This document shows positions 1,132 to 32,000 of a stretch of DNA of 32,000 nt, in pieces. How positions within the stretch are numbered: position 1 is the first letter of the stretch; each line of letters starts with the position of its first letter. Below the pieces are notes generated by a model that was given only the letters and a program-made list of their open reading frames with translations, did not search any database and was not told the origin of the DNA. This stretch comes from Candidatus Jordarchaeales archaeon (GTDB lineage: Archaea > Asgardarchaeota > Jordiarchaeia > Jordiarchaeales > Freyrarchaeaceae), in assembly GCA_038858525.1 (NCBI GenBank), contig JAWCFL010000012.1:29492-61491 (forward strand), read 5' to 3'. Position numbers and translations under genes: made by a program.

Positions 1132-2502
1132 TTAATATTTTGTTGGGTCTGTCTTCATTATCTCGCGCGCAAGGCACGTCGCGTAGCTTCCTTTTGGAAG
1201 GGAGAAGTGGAGGGACGCCGTGACCCCATCTAGATCTTTGTCCGCTGATACCCTCACCAGCCTCAGCATCGGCGGGTTTACTAGTGCCTGCCTGAAGTCG
1301 CCCCTTGCAGCAAGCTCTGGCATTGATTTCACTTTGAATGAGTCCAAGCTAAGTTCAAGCTCCAAGAGAACATGCTTAACTATTTCTTCCTGGATGGAGC
1401 CGGACGGCAGATTAGTGTCGTATCCTATAATGGGGAGAGCTAATGCCGCTTGTCCCCGCTCTATTAAAGAGTTGATCCTGTCAACATTTCCCTCGTCAAC
1501 AAGCATCACTGATTCGGGTAATCCGTTTTTCAGGGTTACTGCGAAGTCCCCTACGTTAACCCGGTTTAGTGGGAGGCCAAGCGTCCTTCTCTCGCTCAGA
1601 ATGAGATTGAAAATATACGATTGAGCAGCATGGACAAACATTAAGGCTAGCCCTCTTGGTAGCCTCCTAAAGGCGCCCACAAAGTCATTTGGAAACTTCA
1701 CTAAGTGGTTGAGCATAGCTCGCTCGTAAACCAAGTAATTGGGGAAACGCTTAAGCGCGCCCTTAAAATCCATCGTTTCAGTTAGGTAGCGCCTAGCCTC
1801 CTTAGCTTCCTCGCTCTCCATCGGGTAGACCTGTGAGAGGAACTCCATCGCCGCCTCCCTGAATTCCCCTTTAAGAAGCCTTAAGCCGACCATGTGCGTT
1901 ACAGGCCGTGTGACGCCAAATCGCTGGTGCCCATAAAAGTTCGGTACTCCCCCCTCAGCCTTCAGCTCCTCAATCACCTTCAATATTCTTTCTTCAGCTC
2001 TCCAGACGGGTAGGCGGATCTCGCGCACGTTAACCCTGAAAAAGTTCCCCCAGAGGTCGCCGAGCTTAACTTCCTCAGCTGAACGCCACGCTCCCCGCAC
2101 AACAACCCCTCTAATTTTCAGGGACATTATGGTTTCAGGCTCAACTTTCCAAGCGCTCATCCTCTGAACTGCAATCGCCCTCTTATCCTTAACTCCAGCG
2201 TAAGAAAAACGCTTCCTGCTAACCCTCAGCGCCCTCGCCATCCTCCTTATCATCTCAAACGTGTCATATGTCCCATGGCGCTCAACAATGAAAACACAAT
2301 AATCCCCCTCTCCCTCACGAGTACCCCAGTCAACCCCCCTTCGGAGGACTTCCCCCTCAGGAGTCACCTCCTCAACCACGAAGTCTTCCGGTTTAACTCT
2401 GAGGCGGCCACCTACACCTGGCGTCTTCGTTATGAAGAAGCGCATCCCCAACTCGAACTCCAAATCCAATAAAGCATCCTCCATAATCTTCCATGAATCC
2501 AC
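1132..2502 (-). CDS. truD: tRNA pseudouridine(13) synthase TruD
   Basis: Motifs PEDFVVEE, YAGVKDKRA (catalytic Asp), NFYGHQRFG and FSLPKGSYAT. Confidence 0.93.
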   Translation of the reverse strand: MDSWKIMEDALLDLEFELGMRFFITKTPGVGGRLRVKPEDFVVEEVTPEGEVLRRGVDWGTREGEGDYCVFIVERHGTYDTFEMIRRMARALRVSRKRFSYAGVKDKRAIAVQRMSAWKVEPETIMSLKIRGVVVRGAWRSAEEVKLGDLWGNFFRVNVREIRLPVWRAEERILKVIEELKAEGGVPNFYGHQRFGVTRPVTHMVGLRLLKGEFREAAMEFLSQVYPMESEEAKEARRYLTETMDFKGALKRFPNYLVYERAMLNHLVKFPNDFVGAFRRLPRGLALMFVHAAQSYIFNLILSERRTLGLPLNRVNVGDFAVTLKNGLPESVMLVDEGNVDRINSLIERGQAALALPIIGYDTNLPSGSIQEEIVKHVLLELELSLDSFKVKSMPELAARGDFRQALVNPPMLRLVRVSADKDLDGVTASLHFSLPKGSYATCLAREIMKTDPTKY

Positions 2503-22336: not shown

Positions 22337-22430
22337 TGGAGCCCCGGCCGGGCTTTGAACCCGGGGCCTTCTCATTACCAGTGAGACGCTCTAACCAGGC
22401 TGAGCTTTCCCGCTAATGAGGCACCGGGGC
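22337..22430 (-). tRNA. tRNA-Thr(GGT) with a 16-nt intron at 8/9 (22407-22422); CCA encoded
   Basis: Spliced: GCCCCGG TA GCTC AGCCTGGTTA GAGC G TCTCA CTGGTAA TGAGA AGGCC CCGGG TTCAAAG CCCGG CCGGGGC T CCA. Confidence 0.9.
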
Positions 22431-22567
22431 AACTTCCGGGGCTTCAATCCTTAAGAAAAAAGGATTCGGTATAAAAACGTTTTCTGGTAAGTTGCGAAGT
22501 TATGGATAGCTATGCTTCTTCCGTACGACAAGTTGTCGTTTGGTTTTTAGATGCGTAGTTTCTGGTT

Positions 22568-28197: not shown

Positions 28198-29143
28198 AAC
28201 TCTGCCCCTCGCCGTACCACCCCTTCCGTATGTAAAGATAAGCGTTAACCGCAGCGGTAGCTCCCTCCCCCACAGCAGTCACTATCTGCATCACGCCCCC
28301 AGTAACATCTCCCGCTGCGAACACCCCCCTAACGCTCGTCATCTGGCACCTGTCCACAACCACATAGCCCTCCTCGTCCAGCCTCGCCCCCAACTCCGCC
28401 GCCAAAGCGCTCGAAGGCACCTCGCCCACAGCTATGAAAACCCCATCCACCTCTAGAACCGTCTCCTCACCACTTTTCAAGTTCTCAATTACAACACGCC
28501 TGACAAGCCTATCCCCCTCTATTCTCTTCACCACGCTACTCCAATGGAAAATTACCCCCCTCTCTCTGAGCCTATCCCTAATTGCCTTCTCAGCTCTGAG
28601 ATCATCGCGCCTATGAACGAGGTGGACCTCCCTAGCGCTCTCTGAAAGATAAAGCGCTTCGCTCGCCGCGGTGTTTCCTCCCCCAACAACCATCACCCTC
28701 TTTCCACGATAGAGAGGCGCGTCACACGTCGCGCAGTAGCTTACCCCCCGCCCCTTAAACGCCTCCTCCCCCGGGACGCCAAGCCTCCTCCTCTCCCTTC
28801 CCGTCGCTATTATCACCGCCTTAGCAAAATACTCCCCCTGCCCCGTCACAACCCTAAACCTTCCCCCCTCCTTCGTAATCCTCTTCACCGCCTCCATCTC
28901 CCTTATTTCACACCCATACCTCTCAACTTGGCGCCGCATCCTCTCAACTAGCTCCATTCCCCTAATAGACTCAAAGCCAGGGTAATTCTCAACTATAGCA
29001 GCCTCAGCAGCCTGCCCACCAACCACCTTAGCCTCAAAAAGCACAACGTCCAGACCGAGACGTGCAGCATAAAGAGCCGCTGAAAGACCCGCAGGTCCAC
29101 CACCAATAATGACCAGCTCTCTTTCAACAACAGAAGACATCAC
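28187..29143 (-). CDS. trxB: Thioredoxin-disulfide reductase
   Basis: GGGPAG, ENYPG, GVSYCATCD, HRRD, FAAGD. Confidence 0.92.
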   Translation of the reverse strand: MMSSVVERELVIIGGGPAGLSAALYAARLGLDVVLFEAKVVGGQAAEAAIVENYPGFESIRGMELVERMRRQVERYGCEIREMEAVKRITKEGGRFRVVTGQGEYFAKAVIIATGRERRRLGVPGEEAFKGRGVSYCATCDAPLYRGKRVMVVGGGNTAASEALYLSESAREVHLVHRRDDLRAEKAIRDRLRERGVIFHWSSVVKRIEGDRLVRRVVIENLKSGEETVLEVDGVFIAVGEVPSSALAAELGARLDEEGYVVVDRCQMTSVRGVFAAGDVTGGVMQIVTAVGEGATAAVNAYLYIRKGWYGEGQSYDS

Positions 29144-29524
29144 GCATCACCCACAAACATAGAACCCGGCAAAGACTCATAAACTCTGCACTTCAATCTT
29201 CGATATTTATGTTTCTCGCATCTCCTTCTCCGTCTTTCCCGCCGTAGGCTAACAGAGCCCGTGGAAAGCCATCAAGCGCCCCCTCAATACCTTTACCCGA
29301 CGAACAACTAAAACACTGATGGCATCTAATGAGGCTACTCAGAAACTTCTAAGGCAACTCATCTCTATGAGTGGCAGTGGAAGCACAGTATCCCCCATCT
29401 CCGCACACAGGAAACTACTCGCCACACGCCTACCCCCAATCTTCCCGAAGTTCTCAAAAATGGCACGTCTACATCAAAAAAGGCTTCATGGAACAACAAA
29501 AACGAAATTTGTGAATGACAAAAC

Positions 29525-29960
29525 ATGAGGAATAGATCAGCATCCATAACGACAGTAGCGATATGATGACGTTGCTATTAGTGTCCGTGATCACAGCAAC
29601 TGCCGATAACATCCAATAGCAACATCGCCATCACCCATCAGCGTTGCAGCAAACAACACAAAAAACGCATTGGGCAAAACATACGATGAGAAAGCCGAGA
29701 AACAACTCTGGACGTTGCTGTTTGATACGAAGAAGACATGATAGTAGCGAGATACACGAATTCTTTTACCATAGCTGGTTTGATACTTACTTTTGTATTT
29801 TGAGCATGACTTAGGCAGCGAGATCTACAACCACCATACCATGCTTCATCATAAGCAGTGCTAACGTGACGCTTGGATTAGTCTCTATCCTGGGCAAATG
29901 TAACTTTCACAAGAACAACGGCAACAGCAAAACAGTAATCACACAAGCAATGTAGTCAGA
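29525..29960 (+). pseudogene. Possible decayed gene for a secreted or membrane protein
   Basis: Protein-like segments in changing frames (MRNRSASITTVAI / MMTLLLVSVITATA / NALGKTYDEKAEKQLWTLLFD) interrupted by stops; no family recognised. Confidence 0.25.
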
Positions 29961-30369
29961 CACGAATGTAACGGTAAACATACAGGCATTCTGGCACGCT
30001 GAGCAGCCTTTATTGTTACTTGCTCCTGAGGTTGTTTGTGATTAACTCTTTCAGCTCCCTACTTTGGCCTTTAATTGCCTCCTTATGCATGGTTTCCATC
30101 GTTATGCTCCTCCTGAGAAATGCCTCCTCCCATGCCCCGTAGCACTCAGCTCTCCTCCTAAAACCCTTTTATTTCTTGTTTCATGTCTCCCCCCTCTATA
30201 ATCTTTCTTTCTCCTTTTCCCTCTGCTTGGCTCTTCTTCGCTTCCCGAGAATCAAATAAGTAGCAAAACTCCGCAGAAAGAAAAACGCTTTCTACACGAT
30301 TACTGCGCTGACACTACCGAAGCTAGAGGAAGAAAATACCTTTGCGCATTAATGAGTCCCCCAGAAACA

Positions 30370-30375
30370 TTTAAG
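30370..30375 (+). promoter_or_regulatory. Putative TATA box of tRNA-Asn
   Basis: TTTAAG 29-34 nt upstream of the mature 5' end, preceded by purine-rich CAGAAA. Confidence 0.5.
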
Positions 30376-30403
30376 AATACAAGCATTATGATATCTACTG
30401 GGT

Positions 30404-30533
30404 GCCGGGGTAGCTTAGCTCAGGTAGTTGCTTAGCCTACAGCGCCGGGCTGTTAACCCGGTGGTCGCAGATCCCACTAAAAGGGAGCGGATGTTCGAGT
30501 TGGGATGCCACGAAAATCCTGCCCCCGGCGCCA
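30404..30533 (+). tRNA. tRNA-Asn(GTT) with three introns: 22/23 (30428-30440), 52/53 (30471-30492), 59/60 (30500-30516); CCA encoded
   Basis: Removing 13+22+17 nt gives a 78-nt cloverleaf with anticodon arm CCGGG CTGTTAA CCCGG and T arm GCAGG TTCGAGT CCTGC. Confidence 0.9.
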
Positions 30534-30682
30534 TCACCAAACCACACCGCTCCCACGTTCTCGTTTTTGCGTGAAAAACAAAGGCCAATTAAAATGGCTC
30601 ATACTGATTCTGATGTACCCGGATTTGTCATGGTCCTCTTTTAAAGGTTCATTTTGCATCTCGGGGCGTTTTTCAAAATGAG

Positions 30683-30824
30683 TGGTGCCTCGGCCGGGAT
30701 TTGAATTCCCTAGCACACCACAAGGATAGCTACCCGGGTCAAGGGGTCGATTAGGCGAGGTAAAGAACCCTCTAAGCCCCTTATGCTGTCAGCATATCCC
30801 TTGGCCGGGCTACACCACCGAGGC
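30683..30824 (-). tRNA. tRNA-Glu(TTC) with three introns: 20b/21 (30788-30801), 34/35 (30751-30773), 53/54 (30706-30732); CCA encoded
   Basis: Removing 14+23+27 nt gives GCCTCGG TG GTGT AGCCCGGCCAA GCAT A AGGGG CTTTCGA CCCCT TGAC CCGGG TTCAAAT CCCGG CCGAGGC A CCA (78 nt). Confidence 0.87.
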
Positions 30825-30852
30825 ACCAGCACAAAATAAAACGAAAGAAGAA

Positions 30853-30859
30853 CTTAAAA
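30853..30859 (-). promoter_or_regulatory. Putative TATA box of tRNA-Glu
   Basis: TTTTAAG on the minus strand, 29-35 nt upstream of the tRNA. Confidence 0.5.
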
Positions 30860-31020
30860 GCTTTAGGGGGCTCCTCTCAAAGGAAATCTAAAAGAGAAAA
30901 AGCTTCAGAGAAACAATGGGCTAACAGGAAATCAGCCTAAAGAAAAACAGAATAGCGCTAAAACACACCCTCCCAAACCACACAATAAAGCAACAAGCAA
31001 AAAAGAAACGCGATATATAC

Positions 31021-31050
31021 TATTGTAGAACAAAGTATTGTAGAACAAAG
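31021..31050. repeat. Perfect 15-bp tandem duplication (TATTGTAGAACAAAG x2)
   Basis: Read directly from the sequence. Confidence 0.9.
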
Positions 31051-31234
31051 CAACCCCCACCCCTCACATTTCTCTACCCACAAACCGAGTTAGGGTCTTC
31101 ACAAATTCAAGAACCACTAACACTCCCCCCTTAGGAGAGACTAATTAATCTACCCTCTTATTCCCCCAACACTTCTATGGAAAATAAAAACTTTCCTCTT
31201 ATAAAACCTACCAGAAGCCTTTGCCTAACCCCAT

Positions 31235-31830
31235 GGGCAGCCTGCCCCCCTAACCTTCTCGAGGAAAACATACGCCTTATCCATAAAAAACATTGAAAGT
31301 AATACGGGCGCATTTATCGTCAGCTGATCGTCTTCCAGTCTCTCAGCGACTTTCAACGCTGGCTCCAGCCTGCTCTCGTCGAACAGCTTTGAGCATTATT
31401 GTAGCGTATCTGGCTACCTGTTATGGCGCATATTTTTCCACCACCTTTATGGGTGAACTTTTTTATGCCTCCTGGACCCCAATTTTCAGTACTTCTAGTG
31501 CTGAGGAAGTGAATCTTTGCCTCTCGATGCTTACCTTTAATCTCATCACCTATAATCTCATCAAAGGATGAAGATAATTCCCCCTAAACCATTTGCGAAG
31601 CCCTCCAGATATGACTAGGCCACCATGCTATTATCTCTGAAAGCCTTAAAAACGCATAGGCTCTCATCCATTCACAGCCTCCTCCTCTCATCCATCATAG
31701 TTACTTTTTCGTGTCCCGTTACGAATAACATGCGGGGCCAGTTCTCCTCCGAGAACTCCACCCTCGAGCAGCATGAGGACAAATGGATCCTCTCACCACC
31801 CCCAACCTTATAAGAATTATCCGTCATCAA
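31235..31830 (-). pseudogene. Possible decayed protein-coding gene
   Basis: Minus-strand segments in different frames read as protein (FDEIIGDEIKGKHREAKIHFL; KLFDESRLEPALKVAERLEDD) but are broken by stops and frameshifts; product not identifiable. Confidence 0.3.
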
Positions 31831-32000
31831 CCCCACATCACCTCATCCACAAAAACTAGCCCTATCCTATCATCAACCAAACTGTAATCCCCCCCTCCAA
31901 CAACTCGCAGAACAACACACCCAACCACGCAAACCCCCCCCACGAAACCAAACACGCCCCCCATCCAAAACCCCGCAAGCACTCCACCCAAAAACCACCC

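Follow-up and report, generated by a model that had tools for sequence, protein, structure and literature searches.

A tRNA-Asn(GUU) gene of a hot-spring Candidatus Jordarchaeum with three predicted BHB introns and a seven-nucleotide exon

Heavily interrupted tRNA genes have been reported for the Asgard lineages Freyr-, Jordi- and Atabeyarchaeaceae. The study of Valentin-Alvarado et al. 2024 (PMC11291895) gives 92-95% of the tRNA genes of Asgard lineages as interrupted, more than half with several introns, and its tables list tRNA-Asn(GTT) with two T-arm introns and an 11-nt exon (Freyarchaeia) or a 9-nt exon (Atabeyarchaeia), as well as tRNAs with three to four introns, and 8-9-nt exons in a tRNA-Arg of Freyarchaeia. 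A preprint of October 2026 (10.64898/2026.10.13.758758) reports about two inserts per tRNA gene in Jordiarchaeaceae, with up to five in one gene, and remarks that annotators often miss inserts in the D-arm. As far as the accessible parts of these two reports go, neither treats splicing order or gives RNA evidence, and neither describes the tRNA-Asn gene of the species studied here individually. An earlier sequence-only reading of this locus had stated that triple-intron tRNAs are known mainly from Thermoproteales; this is out of date, as the locus belongs to an Asgard family in which multi-intron tRNAs are the rule.

The Thermoproteales do have two- and three-intron tRNAs (Sugahara 2007/2008, as cited in PMC4033280, PMC4090602 and PMC8450103) and, as far as these citing papers describe them, share with our gene short BHB introns that lie at non-canonical sites and number as many as three in one gene, and an (alpha-beta)2 EndA, which in our case is predicted. 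According to the tRNAscan-SE 2.0 paper, some archaeal introns are so close to each other that one must leave before the next motif forms. Our gene differs from those of the Thermoproteales in that it comes from a different phylum and in that its second motif is not strictly dependent on the removal of another intron, being an HBh' motif already in the precursor. The other system to compare is the nuclear pre-tRNAs of Cyanidioschyzon merolae, in which RT-PCR on splicing intermediates was used to study the order of removal, and this order correlated with the free energy of the BHBs (Soma et al. 2013, PMC3728597). One of these tRNAs likewise has three introns, with insertions in the D-arm and the T-loop; however, C. 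merolae is a eukaryote, its introns are far apart, fold independently and leave no micro-exon, and the order was shown experimentally, whereas all statements on order made here are predictions.

The window analysed here is a stretch of 32,000 nucleotides of contig JAWCFL010000012.1 (assembly GCA_038858525.1). Positions 30404-30533 of its plus strand are very likely the tRNA-Asn(GUU) gene of a hot-spring Candidatus Jordarchaeum, with a transcript predicted from the sequence to carry three short BHB introns at 22/23, 52/53 and 59/60 (Table 1); the gene model, its junctions, their conservation and the presence of the enzymes are shown here, and splicing and its non-simultaneity are inferred. Removal of the three introns in silico yields a 75-nt cloverleaf plus CCA in which all stems are paired, and which ARAGORN calls as a perfect tRNA-Asn(gtt) of 78 nt. 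The anticodon loop CTGTTAA (30450-30456, anticodon GUU) and G73 at position 30530, directly before CCA, identify the tRNA as tRNA-Asn. Neither ARAGORN nor a gathering scan with Rfam calls the unspliced gene, and the Rfam tRNA model has only a partial match of 14 bits; annotation of this MAG would therefore seem to lack a tRNA-Asn. The spacing of the putative TATA-box-like element fits archaeal promoters.

The sequence-only reading had arrived at the same tRNA, the same three insertion sites and the same helices, and was right to the base: the spliced cloverleaf is perfect, related genomes keep the junctions, and the 7-nt exon flanked by introns 2 and 3 is present in the sequence as described.

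Table 1. Coordinates of the tRNA-Asn(GTT) gene parts, of putative flanking elements and of the orthologue from the sister genus (window positions unless stated otherwise)
Feature	Position	Strand	Description
Putative TATA-box-like element TTTAAGAATA	30370..30379	+	about 30 nt upstream of tRNA position 1; as read from the sequence
Exon 1	30404..30427	+	tRNA positions 1-22: acceptor 5' strand, D-stem 5' strand, D-loop to G22
Intron 1 (13 nt, at 22/23)	30428..30440	+	predicted central helix AGGT/GCCT, 4 bp; bulges AG|T and AC|A
Exon 2	30441..30470	+	A23 to G52; anticodon arm CCGGG-CTGTTAA-CCCGG; T-stem positions 49-52
Intron 2 (22 nt, at 52/53)	30471..30492	+	predicted hBHBh'; central helix TCGC/GCGG, inner helix TCCC/GGGA; bulges AG|A and AT|G
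Exon 3 (7 nt, GTTCGAG)	30493..30499	+	G53 plus T-loop positions 54-59
Intron 3 (17 nt, at 59/60)	30500..30516	+	predicted central helix TTCG/CGAA, inner helix TGG/CCA, 3 bp; bulges AG|T and AA|T
Exon 4 and encoded CCA	30517..30533	+	T60, T-stem 3' strand, acceptor 3' strand, discriminator G73
Competing helix (predicted)	30489..30519	+	GGAT 30489-30492 (intron 2 tail) with ATCC 30516-30519 (across the intron 3 3' splice site)
Oligo-T run TTTTT	30564..30568	+	about 30 nt past CCA; likely transcription stop, as read from the sequence
tRNA-Asn of the sister genus (L005, G004:C4)	1372-1546 (reverse-complement coordinates)	-	four inserts; removal of all four gives a perfect tRNA-Asn

All three junctions have a central helix with four of four pairs and 3-nt bulges, and the three introns differ in what flanks this core. 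At least two contiguous flanking pairs, which define the classes hBHBh', hBH and HBh', are found at intron 2 (outer helix of two G-U pairs, inner helix of 4 bp) and at intron 3 (1 bp outside, 3 bp inside). Intron 1 has just one outer and one inner pair, a minimal or relaxed BHB motif, and flanks of 1 + 1 bp would not be scored as canonical by the classifier of the 2026 preprint. The central helix of intron 3 consists of four Watson-Crick pairs, and its outer helix depends on intron 2, as the sequence-only reading had also recognised: 1 bp can form with intron 2 in place and 5 bp, the full T-stem, without it. When a BHB filter (four of four central pairs plus some flank) was run over the 127-nt gene, 49 intervals passed out of a total that we estimate, rather than counted with a tool, at about 7,000, and all three junctions dictated by the cloverleaf were among them. 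The comparison across genomes is the stronger evidence, at the level of sequence, that the junctions exceed chance.

This comparison rests on four close relatives of the window's genome (G000): three congeners (G001-G003; contig C7 of G003 is identical to JAHLWX010000007.1 of Candidatus Jordarchaeum sp. LHC_1308) and one genome of the sister genus (G004). In blast searches of 40 relatives with the gene, the other three genomes of the genus each had a full-length orthologue, and all three congeners as well as G004 keep the junctions 22/23, 52/53 and 59/60; the spliced tRNA-Asn of each of these four orthologues is a canonical cloverleaf, too. Exons are 77/78, 75/78 and 77/78 identical to those of the congeners, with every difference in the D-arm, while introns reach only 50-88% identity and are of variable length (13-22, 18-30 and 16-21 nt for introns 1, 2 and 3, respectively; the insert at the intron 1 junction ranges from 13 to 34 nt when G004 is included). 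Exon 2 is invariant in the four members of the genus, exon 4 is invariant in the congeners, and exon 3, GTTCGAG, is invariant in all five genomes. The intron-side strands of the central helices do vary among the genus members and the sister genus (GCCT/ACCT for intron 1, GCGG/GTGA/GCGA for intron 2 and CGAA/CGGA for intron 3), and their pairing with the invariant exon strands is always kept. The inner helices vary on both of their strands. That of intron 2, which has 2-5 bp, differs in sequence among the genomes, its first pair being T:A or C:G, and the pairing is retained. In exon 1 of G002, C13 takes the place of T13, so that U13-G22 becomes the better pair C-G, which speaks for an exon 1 that ends with G22.

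The orthologue of the sister genus has a 34-nt insert at 22/23 with only three of four central pairs, a 17-nt insert at the canonical position 37/38, a 36-nt insert at 52/53 and a 13-nt insert at 59/60. Older reviews give a maximum of three, which this gene exceeds; it does fall within the range of the 2026 preprint, where one gene has up to five inserts. Compared with the published tRNA-Asn genes of Freyarchaeia and Atabeyarchaeia, the gene studied here has three introns (and four inserts in the sister genus), and its upstream T-arm intron is inside the T-stem, at 52/53, which leaves a 7-nt exon, whereas the published genes have this intron at 48/49 or 50/51.

The tRNA-Asn genes of G004, G006, G012, G023, G021 and G031 likewise have an intron at 59/60. 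The last two genomes are Atabeyarchaeia-1 and Atabeyarchaeia-2 and G006 is a Freyarchaeia genome; the tRNA-Asn coordinates of these three agree exactly with Supplementary Data 4 of Valentin-Alvarado et al. 2024. Among several Asgard families, tRNA-Asn has its upstream T-arm intron at 48/49, 50/51 or 52/53 or lacks it (L154 of G006, L012 of G021, L013 of G031, L011 of G012 and L022 of G023), and this shifting intron next to a shared 59/60 intron looks, from the sequences, as if introns had repeatedly been gained, or had slid, around a single old one. The tRNA-Asn of G012 and G023 have an insert at 37/38 that fits no BHB at the boundaries tried. A pattern scan of the contigs for the 52/53 plus 59/60 arrangement was too loose: among the matches listed, most were chance matches in GC-rich bacteria, and the scan is unusable for taxonomic distribution. 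The T-loop of the Freyarchaeia tRNA-Asn reads TCCGAGT (L154:181-187), with a C at position 55. Position 55 of tRNAs is nearly universally U (pseudouridine 55), and either the published intron boundaries are off or this is an unusual tRNA.

The enzymes for removing such introns are encoded in G000. There are two EndA paralogues (PF01974, 110.7 and 80.6 bits). The alignment of the 191-aa paralogue with the catalytic subunit of the (alpha-beta)2 endonuclease of Aeropyrum pernix (3P1Z_B, E 1.6e-48) runs from end to end and includes the catalytic residues Tyr, His and Lys and the 'KP' of the crenarchaeal specific loop; in the 198-aa paralogue, the catalytic His is apparently absent from the translated open reading frame, and this protein therefore looks like the structural partner. 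The splicing endonuclease of G000 is thus predicted, from sequence, to be of the two-subunit, broad-specificity crenarchaeal (alpha-beta)2 type. RtcB is encoded as well (601 bits). The 191-aa EndA lies at L151:1474-2049 on the minus strand, the 198-aa one at L152:1189-1785 on the plus strand, and RtcB at G000:C1:35280-36587. Published work ties the combination of (alpha-beta)2 EndA and RtcB to non-canonical and to relaxed BHB introns and describes HBh' motifs as an accepted substrate class of (alpha-beta)2 endonucleases.

With these enzymes, the EndA would cut each intron within its two 3-nt bulges and RtcB would rejoin the exons to a standard 75-nt tRNA with encoded CCA. The two T-arm introns would probably be processed by one full cut-and-join cycle at a time, because of exon 3: in the tRNA body, its nucleotides (positions 53-59) have just one Watson-Crick partner (G53:C61), and the best predicted duplex energy of the free 7-mer with any other piece is -0.7 kcal/mol at 70 °C. 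A free 7-mer would have no anchor, so that one junction must be religated before the other intron is cut. Non-simultaneous cut-and-join processing of the T-arm introns, with no particular direction, is therefore the likely path according to the models. Which intron goes first is not fixed by the sequence; removal of intron 2 would complete the outer helix of intron 3 and modestly favour its motif. For introns 1 and 2, the predicted BHB probabilities are low in most states, and protein binding or folding of the tRNA body must then pay a few kcal/mol.

That the inserts are never removed, and that the gene is a decaying, non-functional tRNA pseudogene, is highly improbable. The failure of the standard tools to call the gene and the minimal motif of intron 1 would fit such a reading; however, the exons are invariant across species while the introns drift, every junction has its complete central helix, and promoter-like and oligo-T elements are in place. 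Moreover, neither blast nor an anticodon-arm scan found a second tRNA-Asn in G000, a MAG of 92.7% completeness in which an unassembled second copy is possible. For complete relatives, the tables of Valentin-Alvarado et al. 2024 (PMC11291895) list one tRNA-Asn gene each, also interrupted; being the sole tRNA-Asn found, with the single gene of the relatives likewise interrupted, the gene has to be functional. On the grounds of conservation and sole copy we reject the pseudogene reading. For a functional gene, the question is in which order the T-arm introns leave. We consider it rather probable that splicing is sequential but that its order is free, or that intron 3 tends to leave first: the enzyme would cut the BHB that it happens to capture, this site would be religated before the other is cut, and the micro-exon would survive as ligation outpaces the second cut. 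The probabilities that bear on this are thermodynamic predictions, constrained partition-function estimates for 37-70 °C with no protein, and are weak evidence: in the full precursor of G000 to G004, the BHB of intron 3 has a probability of 0.009, 0.21, 0.04, 0.37 and 0.085 and the BHB of intron 2 one of 0.002, 0.23, about 0, 0.001 and 0.44, respectively. At 37 °C, intron 3 thus equals or exceeds intron 2 in three of the five genomes with the 7-nt exon and is nearly equal in a fourth (G001), while G004 ranks them the opposite way. The two motifs also co-exist cheaply: in G000, forming both costs 4.74 kcal/mol, compared with 6.92 kcal/mol for the separate costs summed, although they share G53, which is a bulge nucleotide in one and part of an outer-helix pair in the other. 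A precedent for a free order is tRNA-Ile of C. merolae, whose D-arm and T-loop introns leave in either order (PMC3728597).

The sequence-only reading had gone further and proposed that intron 2 must be removed before intron 3. Under such a scheme, intron 3 would escape recognition until intron 2 is out and its flanking exons are joined again, and pairing between GGAT and ATCC would keep the 3' splice site of intron 3 locked. We regard this obligatory order as unlikely. Part of what it builds on does hold: the GGAT/ATCC pairing is possible and indeed present in the predicted minimum-free-energy fold of G000 (pair probability 0.89-0.99 at 37 °C), lengthened by G30487:C30522 and C30488:G30521. 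In each of the five genomes with the 7-nt exon, the predicted probability of the 59/60 BHB also rises once the 52/53 intron is removed (70-, 1.8-, 2.2-, 1.9- and 5.6-fold at 37 °C), and no such rise is seen upon removal of the upstream intron where it is at 48/49 (Freyarchaeia) or 50/51 (Atabeyarchaeia); moreover, proximity-dependent order has been described for some archaeal tRNAs, and ordered removal was seen by RT-PCR in C. merolae (PMC3728597). However, the gain is about 0.1-2.6 kcal/mol, and as the five genomes are close kin, five of five does not amount to five independent trials. An obligatory order would mean that the second BHB cannot form before the first intron is gone; the central helix, the bulges and the 3-bp inner helix of intron 3 can all be drawn in the precursor, which makes it an HBh' motif of the class accepted by (alpha-beta)2 enzymes from the start. 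The GGAT/ATCC helix is not conserved in the congeners, which have GAAA, GGAA and GAAG in place of GGAT, and it sequesters GCGG, the 3' strand of the central helix of intron 2 itself: in G000, forming the BHB costs 4.0 kcal/mol for intron 2 and 2.9 kcal/mol for intron 3. As it hinders intron 2 too, it cannot favour intron 2 going first, and on both grounds we reject it as a conserved regulatory lock. In G003, it is the outer helix of intron 3 that the intron 2 tail lengthens, in register and to 3 bp, and this is the genome that gives the motif of intron 3 its highest probability and that of intron 2 next to none. In the predictions, a modest facilitation particular to the 52/53 position is real, and removing intron 2 first is no longer a must, though it may be favoured mildly. 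In the Jordarchaeum family, the move of the upstream T-arm intron into the T-stem could further be read as the origin of a built-in safeguard: if intron 3 turned into a good substrate only upon excision of intron 2 and rejoining of its exons, the 7-nt exon would never be released and exon skipping would be avoided. If true, this would be an obligatory, structure-encoded splicing order of an archaeal pre-tRNA in the closest prokaryotic relatives of eukaryotes, but we think it improbable.

On its own, the gene matters little, as it is one more example of the interrupted tRNAs already reported for its lineage, with the same multi-intron phenomenon. Its use is that of a concrete case missed by both ARAGORN and the Rfam tRNA model, and its anchor-less 7-nt exon offers a simple, testable case for alternating EndA/RtcB cut-and-join cycles. 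In addition, with a 59/60 intron common across Asgard classes and an upstream T-arm intron at 48/49, 50/51 or 52/53, these tRNA-Asn genes form a natural series for relating intron position to substrate recognition. Sequencing runs that match positions 28500-32000 of the window are exclusively DNA metagenomes from hot springs, from 7 studies.

When four DNA runs were compared with the locus, only the tRNA-Lys paralogue matched, at positions 30433-30467. The introns of this tRNA-Lys(CTT) gene, on the minus strand of G000:C1 at about 146950-147220, lie at 22/23 and at about 53/54, the former ending in ...GTAGCCTAT. Its 22/23 intron resembles intron 1 of tRNA-Asn, most of all the 22-nt version in G002, which suggests, at the sequence level, shared descent or copying of the D-arm intron between the Asn and Lys genes. 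Another tRNA gene in the window, tRNA-Thr(GGT) (22337-22442, minus strand), matches the Rfam model at positions 9-63 only, as a 16-nt insert lies between the acceptor 5' strand and the D-arm (at about 8/9); its acceptor 5' strand, GCCCCGG, occurs twice upstream. A further tRNA gene (30683-30824, minus strand) is convergent to tRNA-Asn about 150 nt downstream and has the 3' end TTCAAATCCCGGCCGAGGCACCA on the minus strand; in both Atabeyarchaeia genomes, the published table (PMC11291895) has the genes of tRNA-Asn and tRNA-Glu adjacent to each other.
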